Assembly (NCBI GenBank): GCA_043228905.1
Contig: JBHGNT010000018.1
Span: 2,294,001-2,358,000 of the forward strand
DNA length: 64,000 bases
Reading direction: 5' to 3'
Source: Azolla caroliniana
Lineage: Eukaryota > Plantae > Polypodiophyta
Positions 4,351 through 53,070 of the stretch are shown here, in pieces. Under the pieces are notes generated by a model. It did not search any database. It was given only the letters and a program-made list of their open reading frames with translations, and was not told where the DNA came from. Position numbers and translations under genes: made by a program. How positions within the stretch are numbered: position 1 is the first letter of the stretch; every line of letters starts with the position of its first letter.

Positions 4351-4524
4351 TTAGACTTAGTGCAAAGTTTTGTACACTACTAGAACTTTCTTAGCTTAAG
4401 CTATTTTCTTTTATTTTTAGTTTTGATGATTGGATAAACACTCATTTTTGTTGTAACCTATTTGTCTCATGGGCCAAATTTGGCCTTAGAAGACGTTAAT
4501 ATATCTTTCTTTCTTTCTTTTCTT

Positions 4525-15000: not shown

Positions 15001-15631
15001 TGTCGTGAAGATCTGTCACTACGCGCGGATCGTGAGGCGAAACCGCCAGGGTTCTAGACCGGAAGGACTCGAAGTTGGCACTAGCTTTAGCGAGAAAGGT
15101 TTTAAGATAGATTTAAAGAGAGAGATTGAGATAAGATAGAACACTTGATTTTTAGATTGAGAGAGAGTTTTTGAGAGACAAGATATATCATCAATTGGAT
15201 AACGAATTTCTTACTTTTAATTTTAATTTTGATCTCAAGTACAAAGCTTCCAAAAATTTTACATTAGTCCTCTCATCTTTTTCCTCCCCTCTTTTATAGA
15301 TGCCCTCATGCATTTGAGGGTACAAGACATGCATAAAATGCATGTTTGCCATTTGGCGCTCATGTATTACATGTGGTGCATGATAACCACGCCACTCATT
15401 TAAGGTCTCATGTATGAGAATTTACATGTAAAACGATAATGAATATTATTTCATGAAAATGTCTTGGCTTAGTGGTAAGCCTATATATAGACTCTCAATT
15501 TGGAGGTGCAAGGTTCAAATCCACACTTGCAATCCTTGTGTATATATAATATACATATATTTATTTATATATCTATCTAGACGTCGGTTCGCCGGATCCG
15601 CTTCCGACCGGCCGGTTCCGGTTTGCTTTCC
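15001..15631 (-). repeat. E1 5' LTR, truncated at ~15631
   Basis: Begins tgtcgtgaagat next to the PBS. The match to the 4525 copy stops after ccggtttgctttcc. Confidence 0.88.
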
Positions 15632-21246: not shown

Positions 21247-21443
21247 TAGCTAAGTGTCACGTAACCATCCCCCATAGCCCAATTGAGGTGGTTGGATCAT
21301 ATGTCTATCTCGGAGTCACTTTCAGTGCCCGCTTAGGTAAATTTTCGATGACACTGGCAAAGAAGGATAGACCTACAAGAGGACATGCATCCCTCTCACT
21401 CCTAGAGAGACAATGCCACCAAGCATACTTTAAAGAGTCACGG
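21247..21443 (+). pseudogene. Third LINE fragment (RT thumb region)
   Basis: AKCHVTIPHSPIEVVGSYVYLGVTFSARLGKFSM matches 2929-3123. Confidence 0.88.
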
Positions 21444-24400
21444 TGTCGTTGAGAAAACCGTCGCTAGGAGGAATCCGTGGATAGTGTGTATGAACCGGCC
21501 CTTACACATGGGTACATGTTTTGATATATTTACATAGTTAAGTATAGGTCGGCGATGTAATTATCCTAGGTAGCATGAATTCATTAGGTAGGGAATCGAA
21601 GAGGATCTCCGTCTGAAAGGACAGAGAATACAGGTGATGTAACAAGTCTGTAACGGTTCTCTCTGCTTGTGCTATAAAAGGAGAGAAAAAGGGGCTGAGT
21701 AGGGATCGCGCGTTTTCGAGGACTAAGTGTTGTCAGACTGAACCCACGCTCTTCTCCTCTATCTTTGATCATTTCATTGTAGGTTGACAGGTTGCCTCTG
21801 TTTTCATGGAAAGCCCAAGCGCTTCCGACAGAGGCTCCATCTCTTGTTGTTGCGTGCGTTGTGTGAGTTAGTGTCAGCGAGTTGACACTTACCGGCTTGC
21901 CGGTTGTAACATTGCAACCTCTGTAATCTATACTGTTATTGGAATTGATTCTTTCATTTCTGTTTCTCTGTGTTTCTGTGAATCTCTCTCCCTCTTCTCT
22001 CTCACGCTCCTCGGTTCAGGGCCCTCACAGTCCCGCCTTATTTCATACGCGTGAGCGTAACAACACAACATAAATTTGGTGAACCCGATGTGAATTAAGG
22101 CGGCAGAGGAATTGAAAATGAGGGGATCAGAGCTTGCTAAAGCTATGGCGGCAGCAGTCAATCGGATAGTAAGTGCTCACGAGGGCACGGGCACCCTCGA
22201 CAGGGCTATTAAAGCAATTGTCGGTACAATAGGCCGGTTCGATGGGAAGGACGCCAAGGACGCCACGAGTTATTTGGTGACCTACCGGGCCGAAATGGTG
22301 ATGAGGGACATCCCAGAGGAGAGGCATTTGGTTGGGTTCCCTCGGGTAGCGACACCGGGCATCCAGGCAGAGGTGCTCAAGGTGCAGGCTAGATGCCGGA
22401 CGTGGGGAGAATTTGAAGCGCGGCTCCTCCAATGGTACGGGCTTGATGACACGCTTCGGTTATCAAAGAGAGACTTTATGGATTGGGTGAAGACCCCAGG
22501 AAAGGGGAGGAATGCGTCGGCGCTCCTCCGGGAGTTTGAGGAACATTGCGCACGCCTCTCAACACTGGACAGGACCGTACTGGACACGAGCCGTGTCCTT
22601 TTATTCGTCAAAGTTGTGGACGTGCGGGATCGGGAGTAAGTGGGTCTCCTGCTGGAGACGGACGATGGGCTGACAGCCGATTGGGCCGTGGTAAATGGGG
22701 TCTGCGGCCGTTTCGACAAACGACGTGAGTGGGTCGACAAGGGCTCGTCGGGGGCAGGAGCGGTTGCGGCATGAAACCTCAATGGACCCCCTGCCGCCGG
22801 TTGAGATAGGTTCGTCCGGTCAAGGGCCCGTTCGGTGGAGCGGATCTGGAAGAACTAACGCAAATGGTACGAGACCTCCAGATTGCACAAGCAAGGAGGG
22901 ACGACGGCGAGTAGCCTCGCGACCGAAGGCCTCCGGGTAGGCATCGGTGCTTGTGGTGTGACGTGGTCAGTCACGTCCGGAAGGACTGCGTGGAATTCAC
23001 AGAAGCAATAAGGGCTAATGTAGTGTACCTATGGAACGGGAGGGTGCACGCTAGCAAGACCCGGAGAGCCCTGGAGCTGAATATTACACGGGGAGGAATG
23101 AAGAGACTGATGGAAGAAGGGGCGGCATGACACGCGGAGACCATCCACTACTCGACGTCGGCATGAATCCAGATCGGTAGTGACGAAGGCCGGAAGATGA
23201 AAGACTCCCGGTTCTAGTTGGTGGTGCTAGAAGGCCTCGCCGGCGTGCGGTTGAAAAGGGAGGAAGAAGACCGTGTGGAAAGACGGGTTCGGGAGGTCAC
23301 CGGGTGGAGTGATCCAGTCGAAGAAAAGATTGGCTTCATGGAAGCCGCGTGCCAGAACTACGAGGTTCTAGTAGAAGACAAACGTGCAGGAAAGGCCCGA
23401 GGGACTGGACCCTCACAACGATATGAGACCTGGTTCGGCCCAACGAAGAACGATGCCGGCAATCTTGGCGTGCCGAACAAACCCAAGCTAGCCGGTTACC
23501 GGCCGAGCACTGATATTGAAAGAACCACGGACCTATGGAAGGTCCTAGAGGAGCAGATTCTCGACAACAAGGTTGAGCTGTCGCTATGGGAAGTGCTTGG
23601 GATCGCAAAGAAGGAATTCCACAATTCTATCATGGACTTGGTGAAGCGGAAGCGGCTCTCAACAAATCCAGAACCGGAGAAGCCCGTGGAGGTGCGGACG
23701 ACACGGCCCTAGAGGTCGAGTTGGCAGAGAGCCATTATTCGAAGTTACACTGGGCTAGGGCCACGACAAAGACCCCTGTTCGGATCGGTGACGTCCAGGA
23801 ACCGGTGGTTGCGTTGATAGACCACGGCTCGGAGATCAACCTGATGTCCATGGACTTCTACAAAAGGGGGAAGTGACCATCAACACCAAGCACGGCTAGA
23901 AAATACGGGCGGTGACACGCGCTACAGAGGAACTACATGGGGCGTGCCCGAATGTAAGCGTGAAGTTTGGGGATGTCAAGATTGACCAACACTTCTTCAT
24001 GCAGGAGACATCCTCAAACCTGGTGATTCTCGGCGAACCATACATCACGGCGGTGCACATGGAGACCAAAGTGCTTGACAACGGTTCGACGTACGTGCGC
24101 GTCAAAAGCCAAGATTGACGTCGCTCCGTCCAATTCCTGACCGTGCAGGCAAACCACGAGCGTAACCGCGAGACCCTCGGCGGCAATAACCGAGGGGATG
24201 TTTAGAGAGGGCTATCAAGGCGTGGAGCCGGGATAGTCCGGACACCATGGAGAAACCCCACACATGTAGCATAGGAAGGAAATTTTGGTTCTCCGATAAC
24301 GGAGGTTGTACTATAACCGGCATCAGCGGCCGGGAAAGGGAGCGGGCGGAGGAACGACTCAGGATGTGCGGAGTCCTCGCCCCCGATGAAGAAATTAGCA

Positions 24401-33425: not shown

Positions 33426-34116
33426 ATGGCTCAAAATAACAACCCGATGTCCTCCGCTCAAGCGGAAGGAACTCAAGGGAATCCTCCTAGACAAATGTCT
33501 ATTGAGATGTATTTTTCGCAAATAACCCAATACCTTAGTTTCACCGCTCAACAGATGACCGAACTTCGGCAATCTCAAAGTGCTCTCGAGGCACGTGTCA
33601 TTAGTCTACAACGTGAGACTAATAGACCTGATGAGCGACATGGTGAACCATCGTTTGTCGATAAGCCATTTACGGGAGACAAAAAGGAAAGAACCGAAGA
33701 AGCAATTTGCACGTGGCTGGGCCGATGGGAGTCTCATTTTGAGCTCTATCCCATGCCATATAGTACGAAGATTGCATATGTCGGCCGAGAACTAGGGGGT
33801 AAGGCCGCTGCTTGGTGGCGTGGGTTCCGTACTTTGGGGAAATTGCCCAATACCTGGACAGATTTTGTCACAGTTTTCAAGGGCCAATTTCTACAACCTC
33901 CCTCTCGAACCGAGGCAGCACAAGCTTTAATGAACCGAGCTCTAGTCGGAAATTTTCCTCGCTAGAAGATTATGTCCACCATGCTAGAACCCAAATCCAA
34001 AAATCGGGTCTAGAAGGGGACTATTGGTTAATAGCTTGTTTTGTCAATGGCATCCCCAATTCGGACTATCACTGGATAGTGCACGATAAGGATCCAAAAT
34101 CCTTTGAAGAGGCCGT
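33426..34116 (+). pseudogene. E5 gag (frameshifted, interrupted by E6)
   Basis: PFTGDK..TWLGRWESHF..LGGKAAAWW..TWTDFVTVFKGQF, then LEDYV..FVNGI..PKSFEEAV. Confidence 0.85.
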
Positions 34117-34927
34117 TGTCGTGAAGAAAACCGTCCATAAGCGGAATCGGCGCACCAAGGCGTGGGAACCGGTTCTTCACGCGCGCACGCTCCAAGTTGT
34201 ACATAGAAGCGAATTAGGAGGTTAATCGGCGGGAACGGGTCCTAACACAAGTGGAGACAAAGACCGCGCGAACAGTCTTTTCGGTCGCGCGCGCGAGCTA
34301 AGGAACTGTACGAGTCGGCGGCGTAACTGCGCGGATGCGTGAAGGACGGAGCGGATCCCTGTTCAAAAGGGACAGGGAATAAAGCTGACATGACAGCCTG
34401 CTCGTCGGCCTATATAAGGAGCAGGAAAGAGCTGTTGCAGGCATCTCGGGCAGAGAGGACGAAGTGCTGTCGGACCGTTTTCTGGACGCTTCTCTCTCTG
34501 TTTCCTTCCTTCTTGAGCTCCATAGCTTTCTGTGCAGGGTCCCGAGGAGGCTCGCGCTGTTTCGAGGAACGCCCGAGTGCTTCCGGCAGCACCTCCGACC
34601 TGCAACCCCTTTGTGCGTCGAAGCGAACAAGCGTCGGCATCTGTTTGCCGGCCTGTTCGGTTGTAACCAACCTGTGCCCCATCGAGGGTTGTAGTCGTCT
34701 TAGCCATTTTTGTTAATATACATATTTAGTCATTCGCATCTGTCGGTGTCGGTGTCTGTTCGCGTTATCCGTGCTGAAGGGCCGTGTCCCTGTGTATCCC
34801 CGGTCCTGCGTAGCCGGTTCTCTCTCTTTCTCCCCCCCTCGCTTGCTCTTTGGTTCGAGACCCCCGCGGTCCCGCCTCGTTTCCACACGCACTTGCGTAA
34901 TATCTCAACATCTTTGGTGAACCCGAC

Positions 34928-36745
34928 GTGAAGGAGGCGGCAGAAGAGCAGAAGATGAGGGGGTCGGATCTTGTAGAGGCCATGGCTTCGGCCGTGGATC
35001 GGATTGTAAACGCGCGCGAGGGCACCGGTGCCCTCGACAGAGCTATTGAGGCGGTCGTCGGCACGATCGGCCAGTTCGATGGGAAGGATGCCACGAAGTA
35101 TTTGGCGTCCTACGGTGCAGAGATGCTAATGCGGGACATTCCGGAAAAAAGGCGTCTTGCCGGATTTCCCCGAGTGGCGGCTGTCAAGAAAGTCTGTGGC
35201 CGTTTCGACAAACGGCGAGAATGGGCGGATAACGGGGCAACCGGGTCGGGCTCAGTCGCAGCAAGGAAGCTCGAACCAGCGCCACAGGTGCGAAAGGAAG
35301 AGACCCGAGAGTGGTTGGAAACCGGTTCGGCTTCGACCGGCGTAGTCAGAGGCTCAACCGGAGGAGCGGCGCTGGAGGAATTGACGAGGGCGATAAAGGA
35401 CCTCCAAATCGCGCAAGCCCGAAGGGAAGGTGGCGAACCGGCTCGTGACCGACGGCCAGCGGCAGGAAACAGGTGCATGTGGTGCGATGAAGTCGGCCAC
35501 ATTCGGAAGGACTGCGGCGACTTCGCGGAGGCGCTGAGGAACAGGGTGGTGTACCTGTGGGAAGGACGGGTGCATGCCAGCGACACCCGAAGGGCCCTGA
35601 GCCGAAACGACGGGCGAGGTGGTATGAAAAGGTTGATGGAAGAGGCGGCGGCCCGACACGCGGAAACCGTCCACTACTCGGCGTCGGCCGGCATACGAGT
35701 CGGGGGCGGCGAGGCCCGAAGGGAAAGCAAAGCCGGATTCTGGCCGACAATGCTGGAAGGCCTTGCCAGTGCAAGGCTTAAAAGGGAGGAATCGGACCGT
35801 GCGGAGAAACGGGTACGGGAGATGACCGGGTGGAGCGACCCGGTCGAGGAAAAGACGGGCTTCGTGGAAGCCGCTTGCCAGAACTACAAGGCTCTGGTGG
35901 AAGAGAAGCGGGTGGGGAAACCCGGGACGACAGGGCCCTCACAACGATACGAGACCCGGTCCGGGCCACGACAGGACGAAGCCCGCGGGGCCGGTGCGCA
36001 AGATAAACCCCAGAAGGGCGGGTACCGTCTGGGGACGGAGATAGAAAGGACCACGGACTTACGAAAGGTCCTGCAGGAACGGATCCTCGACAGCAAGGTG
36101 GAGTTGTCGCTACGAGAGGTGCTGGGAATCGCCAAGAAGGAGTTCCACGACTCCATCGTGGACTTGGTGAAACGGAAGAGGCTGTCAACGGAGACAGAAC
36201 CGGAAAGACCGGTGGAAGTGCGGACGACGCACCTAGACGACATGGCGCTAGGAGACGAGTGGGCGGAAAGCCACTATTCGAGACCACACTGGGCCCGAGC
36301 GACCACGGAAACCCCGGTGAAGATCGGCGATGTCCAGGAACCGGTGATAGCTTTGGTGGACCACGGATCGGAGATCAATTTGATGTCCATGGACTTCTAT
36401 AAGAAGGGCAAATGGCCGATCAACACCAAGCACGGGTGGAAAATAAGGGCAGCAATGCGCGCCACCGAGGAACTGCACGGGGCCTGTCCGAATGTGCGAG
36501 TCAAGATCGGCGACGTCGAGATTGACCAGCACTTCTTCATGCAGGAGACGTCTTCGCATCCGGTCATACTGGGAGAGCCGTACATCACGGCGGCACGAAT
36601 GGAGACCAAGGTGCTGGACAATGGTTCGGCCTACGCGAGGGTCAAAAGCCAAGACGGGCGGCATTCGGTCCAGTTTCTGACGGTACGGCCGAACCACGAA
36701 CGTAACCGCGACTCCCTCGGTTCCGAAAACCGAGAGGATTTTTAG
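34928..36745 (+). CDS. E6 Gag-protease ORF (605 aa, with in-frame internal Gag deletion)
   Basis: GQFDGKDATKYL, CMWCDEVGHIRKDC, IALVDHGSEINLM, VILGEPY. Ends at gag-gat-ttt-TAG. Confidence 0.88.
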   Translation: MKEAAEEQKMRGSDLVEAMASAVDRIVNAREGTGALDRAIEAVVGTIGQFDGKDATKYLASYGAEMLMRDIPEKRRLAGFPRVAAVKKVCGRFDKRREWADNGATGSGSVAARKLEPAPQVRKEETREWLETGSASTGVVRGSTGGAALEELTRAIKDLQIAQARREGGEPARDRRPAAGNRCMWCDEVGHIRKDCGDFAEALRNRVVYLWEGRVHASDTRRALSRNDGRGGMKRLMEEAAARHAETVHYSASAGIRVGGGEARRESKAGFWPTMLEGLASARLKREESDRAEKRVREMTGWSDPVEEKTGFVEAACQNYKALVEEKRVGKPGTTGPSQRYETRSGPRQDEARGAGAQDKPQKGGYRLGTEIERTTDLRKVLQERILDSKVELSLREVLGIAKKEFHDSIVDLVKRKRLSTETEPERPVEVRTTHLDDMALGDEWAESHYSRPHWARATTETPVKIGDVQEPVIALVDHGSEINLMSMDFYKKGKWPINTKHGWKIRAAMRATEELHGACPNVRVKIGDVEIDQHFFMQETSSHPVILGEPYITAARMETKVLDNGSAYARVKSQDGRHSVQFLTVRPNHERNRDSLGSENREDF

Positions 36746-36801
36746 AGAGGACTGCCAAGGCGTGGGGCCGCGACAGTCCGGATGCTCCGGGAAAACCCCA
36801 C
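36736..36801 (+). promoter_or_regulatory. Putative -1 programmed ribosomal frameshift signal (slippery heptamer + pseudoknot)
   Basis: G-GAT-TTT then TAG. Stem ggactg (36749) / cagtcc (36774). Loop gtgggg (36762) is complementary to ccccac (36796). Pol is open in the -1 frame from the heptamer. Confidence 0.75.
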
Positions 36802-39800
36802 ATCTGTACGATAAAACCGTGTACAATAGGTAGGAAATTTTGCTTCTCCGACAGCGGAGCATGTACGATGGTCGGCATCGCCGGCGGAGAGAAAACAAAG
36901 ACGGAGGGGAGACTTCGGGCGTGCGGAGTTCTCGGCCCTGACGAAGAAATCGACGGAGCCGTGGAGGCAGTCTCCTTCGACGACACCTTGGGAATGCTGG
37001 GGAAGGTGGTCGAAGAAGACTTTAACGAAGACCGGACGATACCGGTATGTTCCGAAGAAATGTACGAAGTCATCGCGGACTTCGGTCGAGGGCTCGAGTC
37101 AGAACGGATGGCCCGAGTTAGCACCAAGTACAAGACTGTGGACCGGAAGGTGAGGCCAGTTGCGGCGCCCTTACCGGAGGGCAGCGAATCCCGAATCAAA
37201 GGGGTTGCATCGGACCCCAGTTTATGAGATCCGGCCTGCATAGGACACACCTTCACCAACGAGACGCTCCGCGAGCTGAAGATCGGTGGGGGCGGGTTCC
37301 TACTGCCAGTGGAGGAAGACCGGTTTCGGAGAATGCTCGGAAGGCACGAGAAAGCCTTCCCATTCTCACCGGAGGAAATCGGGTGCGTAGACCCGACGAT
37401 CGTAGAGCCAATGGTGATATTCACGGTACCGCATGTACCGTGGAATCTCAAGCCAATTCCGGTTCCGAGAGCTCACATCCCGAAGTTGATGGAGCTGTTG
37501 AAGCAGAAAGTTTATATGGGCATTCTCGAGCCGTCGAGCGCCCCATATTCAAACCGATGGTTTACCGTACCAAAGAAAAACGGATCGTTGCGCTTCATTC
37601 AGGACCTGCAGCCGGTCAACAGAGTGACCATTCGGAACGCAGGGATCGGACCGACCATAGACGAGTTCGCGGAGGCCTTCGCCGGAAGGTCGATTTACTC
37701 GGTCGGTGATCTATACTCAGGATACGACCAGTTCTAGCTAGCCGTGGAGAGCAGAGACATTACGACGATGCGAACTCCCCTCGGCCTAGTGCGGATGTGT
37801 ACGCTGCCGCAAGGAGGGACCAACTCGGTGGCCCACATGGTGAATGCAATGAACAAGGTGCTGAGGGACTGCATCCCGGACATCACCATGCCGTTTCTAG
37901 ACGACATCCCGATCAAGGGATGCCCGGTAGAAGAGAAGGACGAGACGATCGGGCCGGACGGATGCCGGCGATTCGTGATGACGCACATCGACGACTGCGA
38001 GAGGGTGCTGCAAAGGCTAGAGGATGCGAGGCTCACCTTCTCGGGGGAGAAGTCAGCCTTCGGGCAGTCGGAAATCATGGTGGTCGGACATTTATGTGGA
38101 CCATATGGCCGGAAACCGTCTCCGGCAAAGGTAGAAGCCATCTCCGCGATGAAGCCTGATTGCAGCTCGGTCACGGAAGTACGAAGATTCTTGGGAGCAT
38201 GCGCCTTCTACCACATATGGATCCCGCATTACGCGCACGTCGCTAAGCCACTGTACGGATTATTGAAGAAAGGGCGAAGATTCGAATGGCTAGACAAGCA
38301 CACGGAGTCGGTCCGGAAGCTGAAGGAGGCTCTTTCGGCAGCACCGGCGCTCCGAAAGGCCGTCTACAGGAAGGGCACCCCAGTGTACATAACGGTTGAC
38401 ACGAGTCCGACCGGAATCGGGTGGGTCGTCAACCAAGAAGACGAGGACGACAATCGGTTTCCGATCCGATTCGGCGCGAAGGTCCTCAGTGAGCGGCAGC
38501 GAGGATACGCCCAGGTTAAACGCGAACTCTGGGGTATTGTTTCGGCGGTGAAGGCCGACAAGGACTATCTGATCGGGACAGAGGTAATCATAGAGACGGA
38601 TTGCATGCCGATTCTCGGCATGGTTTCCGGATGCGCGACGCCGGACCTGGCAATGCTCAGGTGGATAGCGTACATCAAGTCCCTGGACCCGGAAATACGA
38701 CACATTTCCGGGAAAGACAACGCCATGGCCGACATGCTTTCGAGGGCGAGGTTCGATGACGAGGGCGGCATGGTTTCGGAGGACGAAGAGGTCGGCGTGG
38801 ACTTCTTCGAGGCAGCATACGTAACAACCGACGGGACGAGCACTCCGGCGCTTAACGACTTCGACGCGAGCAAGTACGACGGGGAGTGGCTGCAGATCGG
38901 CGGGTTCTTGAGGACAATGGCGCCGGATGCGTCATGGACGAAAGACGAGGCCAACCGGATCCGGAAGAAAGCGTACCGGTTCTTTCTCCGGGATGGCTAT
39001 CTATGGAAGCACCCGAAGAAGAGGGACGGCGCTCCGCTCCGGGTGGTGGCGATGAAGGAAGAACAGGAGGAGCTGCTGACGGCCTACCACGACAACCCTT
39101 GGGCCGGACACCGTGGAACTTGGGCCACGTTCGAGAAGATAAAGGAGAAGTACTGGTGGCTGGGACTGTACCGGGACGTGCATCGATTCGTGACAACTTG
39201 CGAGAGCTGTCAGATGCACTCCGTGGTCTGACACCGGGACGAGCTTCACCCTACGTACCCTCCGACCATCCACTTCAAGTGGATGGTAGATCTGGTGACG
39301 ATGCCAATGGGGGTAGGACAGATGCGGTACCTGGTCCTAGCGCGGGAGGATCTGACGAACCAGGTGGAAGGCCGGGCCCTTCCAAACAAAACGACCGCGG
39401 CCGTATGTCGGTTCCTAATCGAGGACGTGATATGCCGGTACGGGTGCGTCGGGAAGATCGTGGCTGACCGAGGAGAGTTTGACGCCGAAGAAGCCGCGGA
39501 GCTGTTCGACCGGCTGGGAGTCAAGCTCTCGCTCACCACTGCGTACAATCCGGAGGCGAATGGAAAGGTGGAGCGCGGACACGGGCCGATCGTCAAGGCG
39601 TTGGTTCGGGCATGCGGAGGCCAAGTCGGTAACTGGCCGCGGCTGCTACCTTATGCTTTGTGGGCAGACCGGACCACGCACAGTTCGGTAACCAGGTACA
39701 TGCCGACGGAGCTCATGTTCGGCCAGAAGCCGATCATGCCGATGGAACAGACGATCTCCTCGTGGGCAACGGTCGACTGGAGGGACGAGATGACCCGGGA

Positions 39801-40224
39801 GGAGTTGTTGGCCGCGCGTATACGACAGCTCGAGCGGAGACCGGAGGACGTGGAACTGGCTGCGGAGAAGCTCCGGGTGGCGAGGACAAAGAACAAAGCC
39901 AGGTTCGACCGAACGCACTGGCTCAGACCGAAGAAAATCGAAGAAGGTGACTGGGTGCTCATCTACGACAGCAGCCTCGACAACCAGCACCGAGCTACAC
40001 GGAAGTTCGCACGAAGGTGGTTCGGGCCTTACGTGGTACGGAGCGCCAATGACAACGGGACATATCACTTGGCGGAACTCGACGGCACGAGAATGGCGAT
40101 ACCGGTTGCAGGGAAGCGGATCAAAGCGTTCAAGAAGCGACACGACGACGAGCCAGACCCGGCTCTCCAAGTCAGCAGTGACGAACGATCCGAAAACGAG
40201 GAAGAACCGACGGGCGAGGAATGA
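36743..40224 (+). pseudogene. E6 Pol (RT-RNase H-integrase), single frame with three point stops
   Basis: ORFs 36868, 37309, 37744 and 39283 share one frame. Stops at 37225, 37735 and 39229 sit at CGA/CAG-equivalent codons. Motifs FLDD, DTS, HHCC, D-D-E, GPY. Confidence 0.93.
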
Positions 40225-40556
40225 AGACGGGCCGGTTTTCTCCGTCCCAACTCTCTTGGCGCATACCGGAGGATGCGCGGTTAGGTGGGGGCGGATGTCG
40301 TGAAGAAAACCGTCCATAAGCGGAATCGGCGCACCAAGGCGTGGGAACCGGTTCTTCACGCGCGCACGCTCCAAGTTGTACATAGAAGCGAATTAGGAGG
40401 TTAATCGGCGGGAACGGGTCCTAACACAAGTGGAGACAAAGACCGCGCGAACAGTCTTTTCGGTCGCGCGTGCGAGCTAAGGAACTGTACGAGTCGGCGG
40501 CGTAACTGCGCGGATGCGTGAAGGACGGAGCGGATCCCTGTTCAAAAGGGACAGGG

Positions 40557-43500
40557 TGTTGGGATTACGGTCCCTTCTCATGGGATGGTCGGATATCGGA
40601 GATGAATGCCGACAAGCCCGGTTTCGGTTTCGGATCCGGATGAAGAAGACCCCGGTTTCGGTACCGGATGACGAATGTACCCGGAGAGCGATCCGGATGC
40701 AGGGACATATCCGTGAATATGTTCGCTATGGGCCCCTGAGGCTACAGTTGTAAATAGCCCAAAGTCATATAAGTATAAATATGACTTAGGGCAAACAGTG
40801 TTGTTGTTGCTTATCATTTTTCTGTTTTTCCACTCAAGAGGAGTGAAGAGGGAGCAGCCGTGAGACAGAGTGAGAGATAGAGCGCGAGAGAGGAAGAGGA
40901 CGACGCCTCTGTGTATTTCCGCCGCCTGTGGCAAGGACAGCGAGCTCAAGGTCGTCGCCTTGGAGCTCGTCATTGTATACTTCTCTTGTATAGTGTTGTT
41001 TGGAGTCTTGTACTCCCGTGGTTTTTCCCATCTAGGGTTTTCCACGTTAACCCCTGTGTACTCGTGTGTTTCTCTCTTTTGGTTTCTATTTTCTGCTGCA
41101 TTGATCCGCGATTACTCGGTTGTGGCCGAAAGGAAGAAGGTGAATCCAAGCGTTGATTCCCAACAAACTGGTATCAGAGCAAACTGCTGCAGAAAATGGA
41201 AGGCGGCGGCAGCGGGCAGCCGGGGATGATGGTGCTGAATGCGCAGAATTACGCCGACTGGAAGATCAAGATGGAGGATCTTCTGATTGTTCGGGACCTG
41301 TACGAACCGATTGACAGGTCGGAAATACCGAAGGGGGTACTTGAGTCGGAGTGGAAGCTCCTGAACCGGAAAGCCGTAGCGACGATCCGACAATATGTCG
41401 ATGTAAGCGTCCTACAACATGTGGCGAACGACACCAACGCATATGAGATGTGGAAGAAGCTGTCGGGCCTCTACGAGAGGAAGAATGCGTTGAACCGGAC
41501 CTCCCTGATGAGGAAGATAGTGAACCTCAAGTACCGGGACGGCGAGAGTATGGTGGAACACGTAAGCACGTTCATGGGATTCGTGAATCAGCTTGCGGCG
41601 ATCAAGTTCCCGTTGGAGGATGCAATGCAAGCCATCATCCTGATGTGTACATTGCCGGAAAGCTGGGAGAACTTGGTGGTGACTCTCAGCACCTCCTGCA
41701 CCGAAGATAACTTGTCCTTACAAACGGTAAAGACAAGTATTTTGAATGAAGAAGCGCGTCGGAGAGATAAGGAACCGGCCTCCGACCCGAAGATGTTGTT
41801 TACCGAATCGGATCGGGGAAGACAATGGAACCGGAGTCCGCAAAGACGGGAGAAGTCGGGGACCCGGTCGCAGTCAAGAGGAAGGCCCACATGCTTCCAC
41901 TGTGGGAAGCCGGGGCACTTCCGAAAGAATTGTCGGCATTACCGAAAAGACAATGGAACCGACAACACCGATTCGAAGAAGTCACCGGAGAGAAACGGTG
42001 AATACCGGGGAGCCACGGACCGGAATGGTTCGGATCGGCGAGGACAGGACCGGAAAGGAACAACGGCACTCGCGGCAAGTGAGGAAGAAATCATGCTCAT
42101 CACCGAAGAAGGTGAGCTAAACGTTGCCGTCGATGAGACGACCTGGGTGGTCGATTCCAGAGCATCGTTCCACCTGACCCCGGAGAGAAGATACTTCTCA
42201 TCCTACACAGCCGGTGAGCATGGCTGTGTTCGGATGGGAAATGAAGGTACGTGCCGGATTTCCGGCATAGGAGACGTGTGGTTGACAACCCCGACCGGAT
42301 GCAAAATGCTGCTGAAGGATGTCCGACACGTTCCGGAGGTTCGATTGAACCTGATTTCGGCCGGGAGGCTAGACGATGAAGGCTACACAGGTAGCATCCG
42401 GAACGGCGTAATGAAGTTCAGCAAGGGGAGCCTGATAGTGGCTCGGGCCCGGAAAGTCAACACACTGTACCTGATGAATGCCCGGTTATGTCCGGAAGAA
42501 CTGAATGTGGCAGCCGACACTGCCGGTGAGCTGTGGCACAAGAGACTGTGCCACATGAGTGAGAAGGGGATGAAGAGGCTTGCAGAAGACAACCTTATCC
42601 CAGTGAAGCATGTGCACCTGGAGAAGTGCACCGATTGCCTGGCCGGTAAGCAGAACCGAACCTCCTTCCACTCAAGGCCACCGACGAGACTGAGCGCACC
42701 ATTGGAGTTGGTGCACACTAATGTGTGTCAGGTAGAAACGAAGTCACATGGCGGAGCCCAGTACTTCGTAACATTCATTGATGATCACAGCCGGAAGCTG
42801 TGGACGGCACCGTTGAAGACAAAGGACCAAGCGTTGTGCGTCTTCAAAGAACTCCACGCGAGAGTGGAAAGGGAATCCGGCAAGAAGCTGAAAGCGATAC
42901 GAGCGGATAACGGAGGGGAATACCGGGGGCAGTTCCAGGAGTACTGTCGCTCGAAGGGAATCCGACTCGAGTTTACTGTGCCGAAGACGCCGGAACTGAA
43001 CGGGCTGGCTGAGAGGATGAACCGGACCATAATGGAGCGGGTCCGGAGTATGCTGGCGCATGCGAAATTACCCAAGGGGTTTTGGGCTGAGGCAATGTCG
43101 ACGGCGACATACGTGATAAACAGATCACCCTCAGTACCTTTGGACGGAGACACGCCGCAGAAAGTGTGGACCGGTAAGGAAGTGTCCTACCGGCATCTGA
43201 AGGTGTTCGGGTGTCTCGCATACGTGCATGTGGCAAAGGACCGGAGAGGAAAGCTAGATCCAAAGACCCGGCCATGCATATTCCTCGGTTACGGCGATGA
43301 CGAGTTCGGCTACCGAGTATGGGACCCGGTCGACAAGAAGATATTCAGGAGTCGAGACATCATCTTCATGGAGGACAAGACACTCGCCGACTGGGAGTCG
43401 GAGAAGAAGGTGAAGAGCTCCAAGTCGACCGGTGAGGATCAACTCTACAAGGAGCAGTCCCGACCGGCAAGGGACCGGTTAGCACTCGAGGATCCGGCCG

Positions 43501-45888
43501 AAGACGGTGAAGAAACAGAACCGGCCGAAGAGGATGAAAACGATACCGGAACCGGCCCCGATCCCGAAATGGATTCGGATGAAGAAGAATCGGAAGAACC
43601 GGTTACCGAAGCTCCGGAACGGAGATATCCTCTAAGAGAGAGAAGGGCCCCCCGGAGATTTCCGGAACCAGAGCACGTGCTGCTAACCGACGAGGGGGAG
43701 CCGGAGAGCTTTGAAGAAGCAAAACATGACACCCAGAGCCGCAGGTGGTTGAGTGCCATGCAGGACGAAATGGATTCCCTGCACGAGAACCACACATATG
43801 AACTTGTGGAGTTGCCGAAAGGAAAGCGGGCACTTCGAAACAAGTGGGTGTTCAAGCTGAAACCGGGAGATGCCGGAAACCCCCCGAGATACAAAGCCAG
43901 GATCGTGGTGAAGGGGTTTCAGCAGAAGAAGGGCGTCGACTTCGACGAGATATTTGCCCCGGTAGTGAAGATGACCTCCATCCGGACGGTGCTGAGCATA
44001 GCGGCAAGCATGGACCTCGAGGTAGAACAGATGGACGTGAAGACGGCATTCCTTCACGGTGACCTCGATGAAGAGATCTACATGCAGCAACCGGAAGGAT
44101 TCGAGAAGAAAGGGAAGGAGCACCTGGTATGCCGGTTGAAGAAGAGCCTTTACGGACTGAAGCAGGCTCCCCGGCAATGGTACCGGAAGTTCGACTCCTT
44201 CATGACCGACGAAGGGTACCTCAAAACGCAGTCCGACCACTGCGTGTTTGTGAAGAAGTTCGAAGGAGGAGACTTTCTAATACTCCTCCTGTACGTGGAC
44301 GACATGTTGATCGTCGGACGGGACCAGGTCAAGATCCGGATGCTGAAGAAGGCTCTTCACCGAACCTTCTCAATGAAGGACCTGGGTCCGGCGAGACAAA
44401 TACTAGGGATGCACATCATCCGGGACCGGAGCAAGAAGCAGTTGTGGCTGTCACAGGAGAAGTACGTGACGAAGGTGCTTCACCGGTTCAACATGTCGGA
44501 AGCAAGACCGGTCGGATCGACCCTCCCGACAAACTGCAAGCTGTCCAGCAAGCAAAGTCCCAAGACAAAGGCTGAAAAGGAGGATATGATGAAAGTGCCG
44601 TATGCCTCAACCGTCGGGAGCTTGATGTACGCCATGGTGTGTACGAGACCGGACATCGGATATGCAGTCGGAGTGGTGAGCCGGTACATGAGCAATCCCG
44701 GGAAAGAGCATTGGAACGCAGCCAAGTGGATACTCCGATACCTGAAGGGCACGGCAAACGTGTGCCTCCGATTCGGCTCCGGAAAGCCCGAACTCGACGG
44801 CTTTACCGATTCGGATATGTCGGCTGATGCAGATACCAGCCGGTCCACATCAGGGTATGTGATGACGTATGCAGGGGGAGCTGTTTCATGGCAGTCGAGG
44901 CTGCAGAAGACGGTTGCGCTGTCAACCACGGAGGCGGAGTACATGGCGGCTGTTGAAGCCGGCAAGGAAATAATATGGATGAAGGACTTCATTAGAGAGC
45001 TCGGTATCCGACAGGAGGAGTACCGACTCTACTGCGACAGTCAGAGTGCAATCCACCTTGCGAAGAACGCGGCCTATCACTCCCGGACGAAGCACATCCA
45101 GCGAAGATATCACTGGATCCGGGAAAGGATAGAAGACAAGGAGTTCGTGCTGACAAAGATCCACACGGACGAGAACGGGTCGGATATGCTGACCAAGGTC
45201 CTCACACCCGACAAGCTGGAAGCATGCCGGAAGAGGATCGGATTGGAGAGACATCCCATGCCGAAGTGAAGGGGGAGTTTGTTGGGATTACGGTCCCTTC
45301 TCATGGGATGGTCGGATATCGGAGATGAATGCCGACAAGCCCGGTTTCGGTTTCGGATCCGGATGAAGAAGACCCCGGTTTCGGTACCGGATGACGAATG
45401 TACCCGGAGAGCGATCCGGATGCAGGGACATATCCGTGAATATGTTCGTTATGGGCCCCTGAGGCTACAGTTGTAAATAGCCCAAAGTCATATAAGTATA
45501 AATATGACTTAGGGCAAACAGTGTTGTTGTTGCTTATCATTTTTCTGTTTTTCCACTCAAGAGGAGTGAAGAGGGAGCAACCGTGAGACAGAGTGAGAGA
45601 TAGAGCGCGAGAGAGGAAGAGGACGACGCCTCTGTGTATTTCCGCCGCCTGTGGCGAGGACAGCGAGCTCAAGGTCGTCGCCTTGGAGCTCGTCATTGTA
45701 TACTTCTCTTGTATAGTGTTGTTTGGAGTCTTGTACTCCCGTGGTTTTTCCCATCTAGGGTTTTCCACGTTAACCCCTGTGTACTCGTGTGTTTCTCTCT
45801 TTTGGTTTCTATTTTCTGCTGCATTGATCCGCGATTACTCGGTTGTGGCCGAAAGGAAGAAGGTGAATCCAAGCGTTGATTCCCAACA
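40557..45888 (+). mobile_element. Full-length Ty1/copia (Tnt1/Tork-like); 609-bp LTRs 40557-41165 and 45280-45888; TSD caggg/taggg
   Basis: TGTTGGGA...TCCCAACA termini and three LTR differences. PBS tggtatcagagc at 41169, PPT gaagggggag before 45280. Confidence 0.97.
41196..45269 (+). CDS. Copia Gag-Pol polyprotein (Gag-CCHC-PR-IN-RT-RH), 1357 aa
   Basis: CFHCGKPGHFRKNC, LWHKRLCH, ADNGGEY, NGLAERMNRT, MDVKTAFLHG, LLYVDDM, TKHI, SDMLTK. Copia domain order. Confidence 0.96.
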   Translation: MEGGGSGQPGMMVLNAQNYADWKIKMEDLLIVRDLYEPIDRSEIPKGVLESEWKLLNRKAVATIRQYVDVSVLQHVANDTNAYEMWKKLSGLYERKNALNRTSLMRKIVNLKYRDGESMVEHVSTFMGFVNQLAAIKFPLEDAMQAIILMCTLPESWENLVVTLSTSCTEDNLSLQTVKTSILNEEARRRDKEPASDPKMLFTESDRGRQWNRSPQRREKSGTRSQSRGRPTCFHCGKPGHFRKNCRHYRKDNGTDNTDSKKSPERNGEYRGATDRNGSDRRGQDRKGTTALAASEEEIMLITEEGELNVAVDETTWVVDSRASFHLTPERRYFSSYTAGEHGCVRMGNEGTCRISGIGDVWLTTPTGCKMLLKDVRHVPEVRLNLISAGRLDDEGYTGSIRNGVMKFSKGSLIVARARKVNTLYLMNARLCPEELNVAADTAGELWHKRLCHMSEKGMKRLAEDNLIPVKHVHLEKCTDCLAGKQNRTSFHSRPPTRLSAPLELVHTNVCQVETKSHGGAQYFVTFIDDHSRKLWTAPLKTKDQALCVFKELHARVERESGKKLKAIRADNGGEYRGQFQEYCRSKGIRLEFTVPKTPELNGLAERMNRTIMERVRSMLAHAKLPKGFWAEAMSTATYVINRSPSVPLDGDTPQKVWTGKEVSYRHLKVFGCLAYVHVAKDRRGKLDPKTRPCIFLGYGDDEFGYRVWDPVDKKIFRSRDIIFMEDKTLADWESEKKVKSSKSTGEDQLYKEQSRPARDRLALEDPAEDGEETEPAEEDENDTGTGPDPEMDSDEEESEEPVTEAPERRYPLRERRAPRRFPEPEHVLLTDEGEPESFEEAKHDTQSRRWLSAMQDEMDSLHENHTYELVELPKGKRALRNKWVFKLKPGDAGNPPRYKARIVVKGFQQKKGVDFDEIFAPVVKMTSIRTVLSIAASMDLEVEQMDVKTAFLHGDLDEEIYMQQPEGFEKKGKEHLVCRLKKSLYGLKQAPRQWYRKFDSFMTDEGYLKTQSDHCVFVKKFEGGDFLILLLYVDDMLIVGRDQVKIRMLKKALHRTFSMKDLGPARQILGMHIIRDRSKKQLWLSQEKYVTKVLHRFNMSEARPVGSTLPTNCKLSSKQSPKTKAEKEDMMKVPYASTVGSLMYAMVCTRPDIGYAVGVVSRYMSNPGKEHWNAAKWILRYLKGTANVCLRFGSGKPELDGFTDSDMSADADTSRSTSGYVMTYAGGAVSWQSRLQKTVALSTTEAEYMAAVEAGKEIIWMKDFIRELGIRQEEYRLYCDSQSAIHLAKNAAYHSRTKHIQRRYHWIRERIEDKEFVLTKIHTDENGSDMLTKVLTPDKLEACRKRIGLERHPMPK

Positions 45889-45987
45889 TAGGGAATAAAG
45901 CTGACATGACAGCCTGCTCGTCGGCCTATATAAGGAGCAGGAAAGAGCTGTTGCAGGCATCTCGGGCAGAGAGGACGAAGTGCTGTC

Positions 45988-46622
45988 AGAGAGGGAGACA
46001 GAGAGAAAGAGAGGGAGACAGAGAGGGAGCGTGCGCTTGACACCGACTCACGCACACACACACACACACGCCGACCCGACTCGCGCCCTTATGTGCAGGA
46101 ACACAGAAAAGGGGAAGCACCCGACACCAACAAAGACACGAATATACACAGACAGACGCAAATGTATGTATTACAAGGGAAAGAATACAACCCCGGCTTC
46201 GAGCCGAACCAAGCTAGGGTAGGTTACAACAGCAGTCTATAGCCAAGCCACCGTCCGGGGAGCTCTTGGGCTCGTCACGCAGAGCGGGGTCTTGCACAGG
46301 AGACCGAGCAGAAATAGCCCTCCACAATCCACCCACACCGTGAAGAAGAGGAAGAAGAAGTAGAAGAACTAACCCTAAATCTAACGGTATACCCTCTAAC
46401 ACAAAATGGGCAACCCTTTTACAAGGGACCATCCCTTCCTTTTATAGAACAAGGAGAGGGATGTGTTACAATGTGGGATAAATCCCGATTTACATGGGAT
46501 TCTTCGCCCCGACTTAACTCCTATTATTCACACAATTACACGAGGGTGAGTGCACATGGTGCACCCCGCCGATGTAGCCAATATTTCCCGGTTTCCGCCT
46601 CTGGCCGAAATTCTTCACGACA
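45988..46622 (-). repeat. Truncated Trp-family LTR in reverse orientation
   Basis: Ends ttcttcacgaca. Shares aaaatgggcaacccc and ccggcttcgagc with the LTRs at 19035 (reverse complement) and 20662. Confidence 0.83.
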
Positions 46623-48590: not shown

Positions 48591-51500
48591 CCATATAATA
48601 TCCTGTGGTGAGAATTTACCGTAGTATTCTATACACGTGGATAAGTGTGAGGGTTAAACGAGAGTGTAGAGAAGGGGAGGATTACTTTTAAATCCTCAGG
48701 ATTGAGACAACCCATTAGGCCAAGTGTGAACATGGTTGGGGGCCTTGGGTATTGCTATAAATAAGAGGCCTAGCTACCCTCATTTGACTATCTTGTTGAC
48801 TACGTCGAGACTCTGTCTTGTGGTGGGTCAACTCTTGTAACGAGCGCGCCAACACCAGGTACGACTCGACGCCACGGCGGTGGTATGGGACGCCGATCGA
48901 GGCTCAAGTCTGTCTCAATCCCTTCGCTCGGGGGTGGTCAGGTGGATCGGCACCCTTCTTTCTCTCTCTCCTTTCTTTCTATCTACCTATATCTATCCTT
49001 ATCTAATGCTTACTTTAGTACATGTCTCTAATAGTACAGGTCATTTTGCCTATAGTACGTCTATGGGGTTTTTCTGGGGTGTCCGGACTAAAAATCCCCT
49101 CGGTTTTCGCCCCCGAGGGTCTCACGGTTACGCTCATGGTTCGGTCGCACCGTCAGGAATTGGACCGAATGACGCCCATCCTAACTCTTGACTCGCGCAT
49201 ATGCCGAACCGTTGTCCAGCACCTTTGTCTCCATGCGCGCCGCCGTGATGTACGGTTCTCCGAGTATCACCGGATTCAAGGACGTCTCCTGCACGAAGAA
49301 GTGTTGATCGATCTCAACATCGCCGATTTTCACTCGTACATTCGGGCAAGCTCCGTGTAGCTCCTCCGTGGCGCGCGTTGCTGCCCGTATCTTCCACCCG
49401 TGCTTGGTGTTGATCGGCCACTTTCCCTTCTTGTAGAAGTCCATGGACATCAAGTTGATCTCCGAACCGTGGTCTACCAATGCCACCACCAGCTCCTGGA
49501 CGTCCCCGATCCGAACAGGGGTTTCCATAGTGGACCTAGCCCAATGTAGCCTCGAGTAGTGGCTTTCCGCCAATTCGTCCTCCAGGGCCATGTCTTCTAG
49601 GTGCGTCGTTCACACCTCCACCGGCTTCTCTGGCTCCGACTCCGTCAATAGCCTTTTCTGCTTCACCAAGTCTACGATGGAGTCGTGGAACTCCTTCGTG
49701 GTGATACGGAGCACTTCCCTCAGCGACAGCTCCACTTTGTTGTCGAGGATCCGTTCCTCCAGGACCTTTCGTAGGTCCGTGGTCCTTCCGATCTCTGTGC
49801 TCAACCGATAACCGGCCTTCTTGGCCTTGTCCGGTGCGCCGGATACACCGACATCATTCTGCTTCGGCCGAACCGGGTCTCATACCGTTGTGAAGACCGG
49901 TCTTTCCCGCGCGCTTGTCTTCCACTAAAACCTCGTAGTTTTGGCACGCGGCTTCCACGAAACCCGTCTTCTCTTCGATCGGGTCACTCCACCCGGTTAC
50001 CTCCCGGACCCGTCTTTCCGCGCAGTCCGCTTCCTCTTTCCTTAGCCGTACGCCGGCTAGGCCTTCCAACATCAACGGCCAGAACCCGGAGTCCTTCGTT
50101 TTCCGCACTTCATCACTTCCGACCCGGATTCCAACCGACGCCGAGTAGTGGACGGTCTCTGCGTGGCGAGCCGCCACTTCTTCCATCAGTCGTTTCATAC
50201 CCCCTCGTCCGACATTCAGATGCATGGCCCTTTGGGTCTCGCTAGCATGCACTCGACCGCATTAGCTCTTATCGCTTCGGCGAAGTCCCCGTAGTCTTTT
50301 CGGGCGTGGCCGACCACAAGCACCACAAGCACCGGTTCCCAGCCGAAGGCCTTCGGTCACGGACTTGTTCGCCACCGGCCCTCCGTGCTTGTGCAATCTA
50401 GAGGTCCCTCACCGTCTGAGTCAGCTCCTCTAGAGCCACTCCTCCAGACGAGCCTTTGACCATGCCGGTCGAAGTCGAGGCGGTCTCGAGGCGGTCTCGG
50501 GCCTCTTCCCTTTGCGCCAGTGGGGGTACCTCGACCTTCCTTGTTGCTACAGAACCCGCCCCCGTCAAGCCTTTATCGAACCACTCATGCCGTTTGTCAA
50601 AACGGCCTCAGACTCTCTTTACCATGGCCCAGTCGGTTGTTAGGCCATCATCAGTTTCCAGCAAGAAGCCCACTTGCTCCCGGTCCCTTGCGTCCACCGA
50701 TTTAATGAACAATAGGACACGACTCGTGTCCAGTACGGTCCGGTCCAACGCCGAAAGTCGTGTGAAATGCTCTTCAAACTCCCGAAGGAGCACCGACGTG
50801 TTTCTCCCCTTTTCAGGGGTCTCCACCCATTCCATGAAGTCCCGTTTCGACAGCCGAAGCATGTCATCAAGCCTGTATTTTTCAAGGAGCCGACCTTCAA
50901 ACTCTTCCCAGGTCCGACTCTCAGCCCGTACCTCAAGCACCTCCACGTGGATGCCCGGCATCGCCACCCGAGGGAATCCGGCCAGTCGCTTGTCCACCGG
51001 GATGTCCCTCATCACCATTTCGGCTCGGTAAGCCTCCAAATAGCTCGTAGTGTCCTTCCCACCGAAACGGCCTATCGTGCCGACGACTACTTTGATAGCC
51101 CTATCGAGGGCGCATGTGCCTTCGCGCGCACTCACTATCTGATCCACGGCCGAAGCCATGGCTTTTGCAAGATCCAGCCCTCTCATCTTTCTTTTCCTCT
51201 GCCGCCTGTTCACGTTGGGTTCACCAAATATGTCGCATTGTTACGCGCGTGCGTGGAGAACGAGGCGGGACCACGGGGGCCTTGGACCGAGAAATAACCG
51301 AATGAGAAGAGGGGAAGGAAACTACCAATGTACTTCACACGCGCACAGAGACACAGATTCACAGGAGTTGAACAATGGAGACAGAACGAATGTATATGTA
51401 TATATAAACCAAGGAGTTACAACCGGCAAGCCGGTGAGTGATAGGCTCCGACACCTGCACACACACACACCCACACACACAGAATGCGAGATGGAGAACA

Positions 51501-52431
51501 CACAGAACGCGAGATGGAGACTCTGTCGGAAGCACTCGGGCGTTCCGCAGAGCAAAGTCAGCCTCCCGAAAACCTGCACATAACGACTATGGAGAAGACA
51601 GAGGAGAAGAGCTCAGTTCCAGTCCGGCAGCACTTCGTCCTCCACAAAATGCGATAATTTTTACAATACCTCTCCCTCTCTTTTATAGCCCAAGGAGGGA
51701 GGCCGTTACCACCAGTTACATCATGTTTATTCCCTGTCCTTTCGGACAAGGATACGCCTCGATTTTCTCCCTAATGAATGCGTGCTACCTAGCATTTCAC
51801 CTCAACCAACTTGTACCTACCTACGTACTATACGACAAAACTTGTACCCATGTGTAAGGGCCAGTTTACACACGTTATACCCGGTTTCCGCCTAGGGACG
51901 GTTTTCTCCATGACACCGCGGTGGACTGGAGAGATGAAATGAGCCAGGAGGAGCTGTTAGCGACACGAATCCAACAGCTCGAGCGAAGACCGGAGGACAT
52001 GGAATGAGCAACGGCGAAGCTGCGTGCAGCAAGGACAAAGAACAAGGGGCGATTCGACCAGACTCACGGACTATGACCAAGGAAAATCGAGGAAGGCAAC
52101 TGGGTTCTAATCTACGACAGCAGCCTCGACAACTAGCACAAGGCAATGCGGAAGTTTGCGAGGAGGTGGTTCGGGCCTTACGCGGTGACAAGCGCCAACG
52201 ACAACGGCACCTACCATCTCGTGGAGCTCGACGGAACGAGAATAGTTATGCTAGTGGTTGGGAAGAGGATCAAGGCATTCAAGAAGCGGCATGAGGCCGA
52301 ACCGGACCCAGAGGGCATGGGTAGCGACGATGACCGGTTCATAGTGGGTAGCAAACCAGAGAGCGAAAGATAATCACAGGTCGGTCTACTCCGGTAGAAG
52401 TCTGTTCTGGCGCATACCAGAGGATGCGCGG

Positions 52432-53070
52432 TGTCGTGAAGAAAACCGGCCCTAAGATGAATCAAAGGATTAAAGGCGTGAACCCGCCTTTGCACGAGTG
52501 TGCGCGAATTGATATATTGTACATAACTAGGAATAGGACGGATGGTGTAAACATACTAGGTGTTAGATATTTACTAATTAGGAAATCAACGCGTATCTCT
52601 ATCCGAAGGGACAAAGAATAAAGTTAGCATGTTTTGATGTAATGGCCTCCTCGGCGACCTATAAAAAGGGAAGGAGAGGAGGAAAGGGAAAGAGGTTTTC
52701 GGGGGGAGAAAAAAGAGGTGTTGTCGGACTGGGAACTGAGCTCTCTCTCTCTTCCTCTATCATCATCATTCTCTGCAGGGTTGCCATCATTGTAATTGTC
52801 ACTATTATTATAATCGAATCTCTTGTTTCCATCTACCTGTGTTATCTAAGTTTCTGGGAGTGTCTTCTTTCACGTCCCTCGAGTGTGCTCCTTGATTAAG
52901 TCGGTATACGCGTTGGTGGTTCAATCATCGGGGAAGTGCCACCAATTGTTGACAGGCCTAGCAGGTCTTGCACTTGCGTGCTTCTCACTTCCTCTTGTAT
53001 CACCTGCTCCTCGGTTCAGGGCCCCCGTGGTCCCGCCTTATTTCACACATGAAAGTGTAACAACACGACA
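52432..53070 (+). repeat. Isolated Trp-family LTR flanked by gcgg on both sides
   Basis: TGTCGTGAAGAAAACC...AACACGACA. Confidence 0.85.

Follow-up and report, generated by a model that had tools for sequence, protein, structure and literature searches.

The boundary between the Gag-protease (Gag-PR) and Pol reading frames of E6, a long terminal repeat (LTR) retrotransposon in a stretch of 64,000 nucleotides (nt) of the fern Azolla caroliniana (contig JBHGNT010000018.1, positions 2,294,001 to 2,358,000; hereafter the window), is very probably a site of pseudoknot-stimulated −1 ribosomal frameshifting, and the comparative evidence for this is strong. By its sequence features E6 is a Ty3/gypsy element with the hallmarks of Phygy, namely a primer-binding site (PBS) for tRNA-Trp, NCGN target sites and no chromodomain; the Phygy-type label relies on these hallmarks together with named homologues, set against the descriptions of Neumann 2019 (PMC6317226). 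Directly supported are the two frames, the slippery heptamer, the stop codon, the covariation of both stems and the coding constraint on the Pol frame.

In the mechanism that we propose, the Gag-PR frame would terminate right after G_GAU_UUU while an H-type pseudoknot 6 nt downstream holds the ribosome, and a minority of ribosomes would slip back one base to produce a fusion of Gag-PR with reverse transcriptase (RT), RNase H (RH) and integrase (IN). Re-pairing would then be complete for tRNA-Phe (UUU to UUU) and partial for tRNA-Asp (GAU to GGA). As most ribosomes would end at the stop, an excess of Gag-PR would result, with small amounts of RT, RH and IN to be released by the protease inside the particle. 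G_GAU_UUU is a tolerated variant of X_XXY_YYZ (PMC4737148).

A preliminary description of the window had placed the end of Gag-PR at G-GAU-UUU-UAG, with Pol in the −1 frame, and these coordinates hold for E6 and for the related copy E1, as well as for E3, in which the heptamer is mutated (Table 1). The Gag-PR frame of E6 is open from 34901 to 36745 (614 codons) and its Pol frame, −1 relative to Gag, is open from 36706; the stem 1 core, GGACTG (36749–36754) with CAGTCC (36774–36779), extends to eight pairs with one C-A mismatch. E1 has stem 1 GGACTATT/AATAGTCC, stem 2 TGGGG/CCCCA and a −1 Pol frame open for 408 codons. E3 also has Pol in −1 and retains stem 1 (GGGCTATC/GATAGTCC), and its stem-2 loop strand is mutated (GTGGAG). 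In a further copy, E4, about 31 nt of stem 1 are missing between two TAG microhomologies, in agreement with the deletion noted earlier near 49088.

The same arrangement was found well beyond the window. A metagenome scan gave 133 relatives, of which 80 were kept, and 49 junctions had enough flanking sequence. Taking as intact those in which Gag is open upstream and Pol is open into RT, 24 of the 49 qualified (22 metagenome loci plus E1 and E6), and these fall into 12 families with less than 85% identity between families. A slippery heptamer in the upstream frame with Pol in −1 was present in 23 of the 24, the sole exception being L035, which is considered below. In the 23, no stop interrupts Pol between the heptamer and RT, and the complete ones stay open for 1,123–1,174 codons; across the intact junctions the 0 frame past the heptamer closes within 2–7 codons. 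Downstream, the Pol frame shows 83 synonymous versus 74 non-synonymous changes over five non-independent pairs, with third positions the most variable in all five. Relatives were absent from the viral contigs and prokaryote genome contigs searched.

Protein ends point to the same position. Among the 120 Gag-PR homologues listed of 224 found, we counted 85 open reading frame (ORF) calls and excluded 35 spliced gene models. Eighty-one of the 85 end on slip-site residues (D/N/G-F in 57, DF/GF plus five residues in 22 and VF-D/Y in 2) and the remaining four end upstream of the site, the distance from the last PR motif to the slip-site end varying from 20 to 36 residues. Eight of the 35 excluded models, comprising Physcomitrium, Riccia and Adiantum proteins, also end on these residues. 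When distant representatives were included, 112 of 186 proteins that reach the last PR motif end on the slip site, some of them at ~39–45% identity. The group of 22 ORF calls is a sub-group whose Gag stop, rather than adjoining the slip site, comes five codons later, at the top of stem 1; it includes L036, L042 and, from P. patens and Adiantum, proteins such as P0122 and P0216.

The heptamer itself is constrained at the nucleotide level beyond what the protein requires. Over 57 non-redundant junctions, from which L016, L049, L070 and L073 were left out for having no placeable site, the heptamer columns are 95–100% conserved, versus 66% upstream. GGATTTT occurs in 46 and GGTTTTT in three, a stop of any of the three kinds follows directly in 48, and 56 keep the first G, although it falls on a third codon position, across nine different amino acids.

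Downstream of the heptamer, alignments predict a pseudoknot. Stem 1 was recovered by folding in all ten sequences tried (z −0.3 to −3.1), E6 folded alone being unremarkable (z −0.73). Its spacer measures 4–6 nt depending on how far the stem is extended and 6 nt at the conserved GG, which fits the 5–9 nt required of a canonical −1 signal. In a near-gapless alignment of the 12 families and E6 (13 rows), 98% of stem 1 cells are paired and six of eight pairs carry two-sided changes, which bears out the covariation described earlier from the window copies alone. The earlier proposal that a tgggg loop pairs with a downstream ccccac is likewise favoured, in that stem 2 changes between families and would still pair. 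Its strands are replaced wholesale with pairing kept: GUGGGG/CCCCAC, GCGAGA/UCUCGC (L040), CAAGG/CCUUG (L036) and GGGACA/UGUCCC (L021). For seven families in one gapless register, 34 of 35 stem-2 cells are paired and four of five pairs are changed on both sides; none of 500 shuffles reached this covariation, and slid partners gave 35–52% paired. When stem-2 strands were swapped between families, cognate partners averaged −8.3 versus −6.2 kcal/mol in permutations, and among 9,650 pseudo-sites in Pol a match to both stems of any family was seen in only 0–0.4%. The 3′ strand of stem 2 occupies different codon phases in different families, and amino acids therefore do not explain the pairing. Taken together, the predicted frameshift-pseudoknot signal appears to recur at the same position in 12 families, beyond chance. 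Rfam gave no matches for 36600–36950 at E up to 1. A 30-row alignment, mostly of close copies (stem 2 87% paired, one of six pairs with a two-sided change), is not used as main evidence because stem 2 there rests largely on invariance, and the Gag-based tree is poorly resolved, so that independent stem changes are not countable from it.

Several observations weigh against this interpretation. Placing the heptamer by best match inflates its apparent conservation. Of the 186 proteins mentioned above, 74 lack a slip-site end (45 long tails and 29 others), many of them resembling gene models or decayed copies. When all 13 rows share one register, just 73% of the stem-2 cells are paired, because loop 3 varies by 1–2 nt; the seven-family register was picked after inspection, and relatedness of the sequences inflates shuffle tests and makes their figures optimistic. 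In just 5 of 12 rows does the cognate stem-2 partner rank first, alone or jointly, as most families share GUGGGG. With regard to E6 itself, Gag carries an in-frame deletion of 111 codons relative to the homologue P0123. Finally, minimum-energy folds put competing hairpins over the 3′ strand of stem 2 in 8 of 10 sequences; as a speculation, these hairpins could tune frameshift efficiency.

The competing hairpins are also the main argument for a −1 shift stimulated by stem 1 alone, or by two adjacent hairpins, with stem 2 unformed or irrelevant. Simple stem-loops suffice for frameshifting in human immunodeficiency virus (HIV), and stem 2 is weak in some families (−4.3 kcal/mol in L036, −4.1 in L042 and −5.1 in L007). 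However, the competing hairpins change register from family to family, whereas stem 2 keeps its two-sided changes in one register across seven, and ViennaRNA, which drew the folds, is unable to draw pseudoknots. We consider this alternative unlikely. Readthrough was rejected, since Pol is not in the Gag frame. Pol could also be reached by Ogre-like splicing that removes the Gag stop, the structure then having some other role; Ogre has a functional intron (PMC12786077) and a split between GAG-PROT and RT-RH-INT, and predicted introns in Riccia gene models span the junction. Yet from the heptamer onward the −1 frame is both open and under constraint; only 2 of the 12 families have donor-like motifs within 60 nt, and no donor is conserved; an Ogre-type intron with stops between PR and RT does not match this open Pol frame. 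The Riccia junctions, moreover, are inconsistent between models. Splicing of pol was what the preliminary description had named as speaking against a shift; no spliced joints appeared in four RNA runs, a weak test because depth was low (~6–15 junction reads in two raw-read runs) and reads came from related copies and both strands. All in all, we judge splicing very unlikely. Least probable, to the point of being barely credible, is that ribosomes start Pol on its own 3′ of the Gag stop, through reinitiation or internal initiation: an early Met does occur in the Pol frame of L007 (codon 4) and L042 (codon 8), but the first Met falls anywhere from codon 4 to 109 among the 12 families, there is no conserved start codon, and the fixed synonymous G and the GAU and UUU codons would be left unexplained.

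The gene models in question (Riccia P0022, P0023, P0029, P0040, P0054 and P0058) fuse Gag-PR to Pol at inconsistent points. Their joints are probably predicted introns bridging the frameshift, and a frameshift would explain why introns predicted across this junction in liverwort genomes are inconsistent.

The one intact junction with Pol outside the −1 frame belongs to a sub-clade that the preliminary description missed. In L035 (L035:2835–2895), Gag ends CAG GTT TTT GAC TAG with the site AG_GUU_UUU; two codons on, the −1 frame reaches a stop, and the +1 (equal to −2) frame carries an open Pol of 1,153 codons. The conserved GG of stem 1 stands 5 nt from the site, versus 6 nt elsewhere, and stem 2 reads AUGAGGGU/ACCCUCAU. 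An assembly error was rejected, as contigs of two other runs read across the junction gap-free, one with 0 differences and the other with 1; in RNA run X12, just three partial reads fell on L035. The L035 Gag end is common to five listed members of the P0145 cluster, and in a second family (P0150/P0384 and P0016/P0385) the only non-trivial overlap of peptide ends is +1, as judged from proteins and not DNA; the DNA for the +1-frame clade comes from the single locus L035. In a quick Pol tree with a midpoint root, the Pols of L035, P0145/P0014 and P0150/P0016 form one clade (SH-like approximate likelihood-ratio test, 100) that sits within −1 families and leaves L040, itself a −1 family, outside; the +1-frame state therefore looks derived.

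The shift in this clade is likely −2, with the same predicted knot one base closer. AG_GUU_UUU equals the arterivirus −2 site (PMC6675879), and in the alignment the distance from the A site to stem 1 after a −2 slip would be the same as that after −1 in other families. −2 shifting is reported to be optimal at spacers 1–2 nt shorter than −1 (PMC3458567), although some −1 families can extend stem 1 to 4–5-nt spacers, which counts against a −2 shift here. The L035 clade could instead reach its frame by a +1 shift, at UUU_N or antizyme-like at the stop. Antizyme +1 shifting uses a pseudoknot 3 nt from its site (PMC5009743), and the second family seemingly has UUU_U, as deduced from peptides, which would permit +1 re-pairing; UUU_G in L035, on the other hand, is poor for +1 re-pairing of tRNA-Phe, and we regard a +1 shift as possible but doubtful. 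Returning to −2, our slight preference, on sequence comparison, is for one ancient pseudoknot cassette in moss, liverwort and fern Phygy elements, which the L035 clade would have re-tuned from −1 to −2 through AG_GUU_UUU and the loss of a spacer base. −2 shifts are known from phage Mu, arteriviruses and Trichomonas vaginalis virus 1 (TVV1; PMC5009743). The arterivirus nsp2TF signal resembles L035 in its G_GUU_UUU site and the immediate stop in the −1 frame (PMC6675879), and differs in using a protein-bound C-rich motif ~10 nt away with no RNA structure (PMC7939443), where L035 has a covarying pseudoknot 5 nt away. If the −2 assignment is true, the L035 clade is a natural case, among eukaryotic nuclear elements, of −2 frameshifting driven by RNA structure, and one on which nature itself tries out the spacer/mRNA-tension model for the direction of the shift. 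Little beyond the spacer base and the slip codon separates the −1 cassette from its candidate −2 sister, and the pair therefore offers a test of spacer length setting direction (PMC3458567).

Assignment of the first ORF to Gag-PR follows from structure modelling. The final 164 Gag residues were modelled as a beta-rich domain (mean predicted local distance difference test score 81) that matches the Ddi1 RVP, xenotropic murine leukemia virus-related virus (XMRV) and HIV proteases (Foldseek, E down to 1e-6), and a retropepsin fold is accordingly a prediction for the E6 Gag C-terminus. The protease was not detected by Pfam at E 0.001, and a profile search of solved structures reached merely E 0.7, to Ty3. 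The usual retropepsin active-site motif is D-T/S-G; here D-H-G is found in 110 of the 120 listed homologues. For RT-RH of E6, the best solved-structure match is Ty3 (E 4e-27) and for integrase it is foamy virus, and none of the ten integrase structure hits carries an avian name.

E6 has LTRs, PBS, polypurine tract (PPT) and the order GAG-PR-RT-RH-INT of Ty3/gypsy elements, with named homologues from Physcomitrium patens, Riccia and Adiantum. We read its PBS, TGGTGAACCCGACGTGA, as one for tRNA-Trp from the general 3′ end of that tRNA, not from a host tRNA gene. Pfam at E 0.001 revealed no chromodomain and no second RNase H family, and there is no ORF between Pol and the 3′ LTR, which are 72 nt apart. 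The element measures ~7.0 kb by coordinates with its truncated 3′ LTR, or ~7.3 kb with a 333-nt Gag deletion restored (Phygy range 7.7–10 kb). E6 is a dead copy; its Pol carries three in-frame stops (37225, 37735 and 39229). The first ~130 Pol residues (36736–37125), upstream of a conserved TKYK motif, belong to no Pfam family and keep a constant length (124–132) across families. The pre-PPT hairpin is conserved, and compensatory changes around CCGGAGG (GCGCAT/ATGCGC, GCACAT/ATGTGC and GCACGT/ACGTGC) were seen by eye, without counting, on comparing window positions 40259–40295 with L001, L006, L007, L017, L021, L035, L040 and L042.

Table 1. Positions in the window of the E6 features and of the Gag-PR/Pol junctions in related copies.
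Feature	Position	Strand	Remarks
Left target site CCGT	34113..34116	+	NCGN, Phygy-type
E6 5′ LTR, TG...CA	34117..34910	+	3′ end placed by the family motif preceding the PBS
PBS TGGTGAACCCGACGTGA	34915..34931	+	17-nt motif; recurs within 2 mismatches in 20 loci
Gag-PR ORF	34955..36745	+	Zinc-knuckle-like motif, DUF4100 (Pfam), C-terminal protease
Protease domain at Gag end	36305..36682	+	Predicted retropepsin fold; motif D-H-G at 36359-36367
Slippery heptamer G_GAU_UUU	36736..36742	+	Closes Gag-PR of E6
Gag-PR stop TAG	36743..36745	+	Adjoins heptamer; TAG, TGA or TAA in relatives
Stem 1 of predicted pseudoknot	36749..36779 (36749-36756 with 36772-36779)	+	6-nt spacer from heptamer
Stem 2 of predicted pseudoknot	GTGGGG 36762-36767 with CCCCAC 36796-36801	+	Loop strand pairs 16 nt 3′ of stem 1
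Pol, −1 frame	36736..40224	+	~130-residue N-terminal segment, RT, RNase H, integrase
Pre-PPT hairpin GCGCAT/ATGCGC and PPT	40259..40295	+	Hairpin 40259-40278, then PPT 40283-40295
E6 3′ LTR	40296..45990	+	Interrupted by copia element 40557-45888; truncated ~45990
E1 junction	13111..13173	−	Intact heptamer 13173-13167, stop 13166-13164, both stems
E3 junction	24196..24261	+	Heptamer 24196-24202 mutated to GGATGTT
E4 junction	49088..49097	−	Heptamer 49097-49091 and stop intact

The whole window is a nest of plant LTR retrotransposons. The copia element in the E6 3′ LTR has an uninterrupted 1,370-codon ORF, LTRs that are 98.9% identical and the target site CAGGG/TAGGG, and its insertion is probably recent. 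E4 is nested in the integrase gene of E3 at an NCGN site (27147–27150 and 51920–51923), the site of E3 itself lying at 21439–21442 and ~53069–53072. Target sites read CCGT/CCGC for E4, ACGG/GCGG for E3, CCGT on the left of E6 and GTGT/GCGT for an element at 59610–62598; the CpG targeting reported earlier was thus seen as NCGN sites of E3, E4 and E6, a preference already published for Phygy (PMC6317226). The element at 59610–62598 (minus strand) is a young, non-autonomous Phygy-like element with 706-bp LTRs that are 99.4% identical, a Trp PBS at 61888 and the same pre-PPT hairpin; its one 569-codon ORF has a weak Gag N-terminal match alone, and it has no Pol. Another RT-bearing element (RVT_1 hits, Pfam) is present twice, at 896–4528 and 15271–18578, its copies being 96% identical.

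Among known systems, Phygy comes closest. In the survey of Neumann 2019 it has a tRNA-Trp PBS (81%), 4-bp NCGN target site duplications (TSDs; 100%) and an ORF organisation given as 'ND' (PMC6317226). E6 shares with it the tRNA-Trp PBS, the NCGN sites, the lack of a chromodomain or extra ORF, an internal region that is nearly all coding, and P. patens homologues; it differs in that the accessible part of the survey names no recoding signal, where here Gag-PR is followed by a −1 step and RT-RH-IN (PMC6317226). TatI likewise combines a tRNA-Trp PBS (75%) with 4-bp TSDs, and GAG-PROT apart from RT-RH-INT prevails in Retand, with a single stop in 49%, and in Ogre, with a spacer in 35% and a stop in 14% (PMC6317226). 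Retand and Ogre resemble E6 in having the protease within the Gag ORF and the break before RT, but Retand has an in-frame stop and Ogre a spliced spacer, both with archaeal-type RNase H and extra ORFs. In Tcn1 and Selgy the gag and pol frames overlap, the break falls before PR and the survey names no signal (PMC6317226). The preliminary description had regarded the system as under-described. This stands for the crossing from PR to RT in Phygy ('ND'), which seems undescribed, and does not stand for PR-in-Gag, the Trp primer and CpG targeting at NCGN sites, which are known in plant non-chromoviruses as they are tabulated in that survey.

Alpharetroviruses have PR within Gag and a tRNA-Trp primer, and their heptamer is unlike G_GAU_UUU. 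Rous sarcoma virus makes a −1 shift at the end of gag that is ~5% efficient and involves a pseudoknot (PMC5009743). Alpharetroviruses also have an env gene, there is no special sequence kinship, and E6, with RT-RH nearest to Ty3, does not classify as one of them. The convergence with alpharetroviruses proposed earlier consequently holds as an analogy only, a split after GAG-PROT being tabulated for Retand and Ogre. GGAUUUU is used as a −1 site in red clover necrotic mosaic virus. [quoted passage not shown] PEMV2 differs in using a bulged hairpin and long-range 3′ pairing, not a local H-type pseudoknot. In PEG10, PNMA3 and fungal and insect gypsy elements the shift falls between Gag and PR. These systems resemble E6 as gypsy-derived −1 shifts, with an H-type pseudoknot shown for PEG10 and Ma3 (PMC5009743), and differ in not being plant elements.

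In the accessible literature, the usual account of plant LTR retrotransposons is of a single ORF or of splicing, mostly without recoding (PMC5580714, PMC5009743), and a 2003 survey, as reported in a review, met with separate frames in just two types of plant element, each of them +1 (PMC5009743). The word 'frameshift' is absent from PMC7466625, PMC12885004 and PMC2864245, the accessible parts of PMC3605345, PMC11963269 and PMC12786077 describe no such signal, and a literature search of titles and the beginnings of abstracts, with few subscription papers or supplements covered, found no frameshift signal described for Phygy or plant retrotransposons. Although the −1 mechanism itself is textbook, crossing from PR to RT by frameshift in Phygy appears undescribed. 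The 'ND' entry for Phygy would be filled by a covariation-supported cassette, and Physcomitrium carries homologues, so that an assay is possible there. The comparison suggests that plant non-chromoviruses may share a regulated boundary between PR and RT that is crossed differently in each lineage, by a stop in Retand, an intron in Ogre and a frameshift in Phygy.

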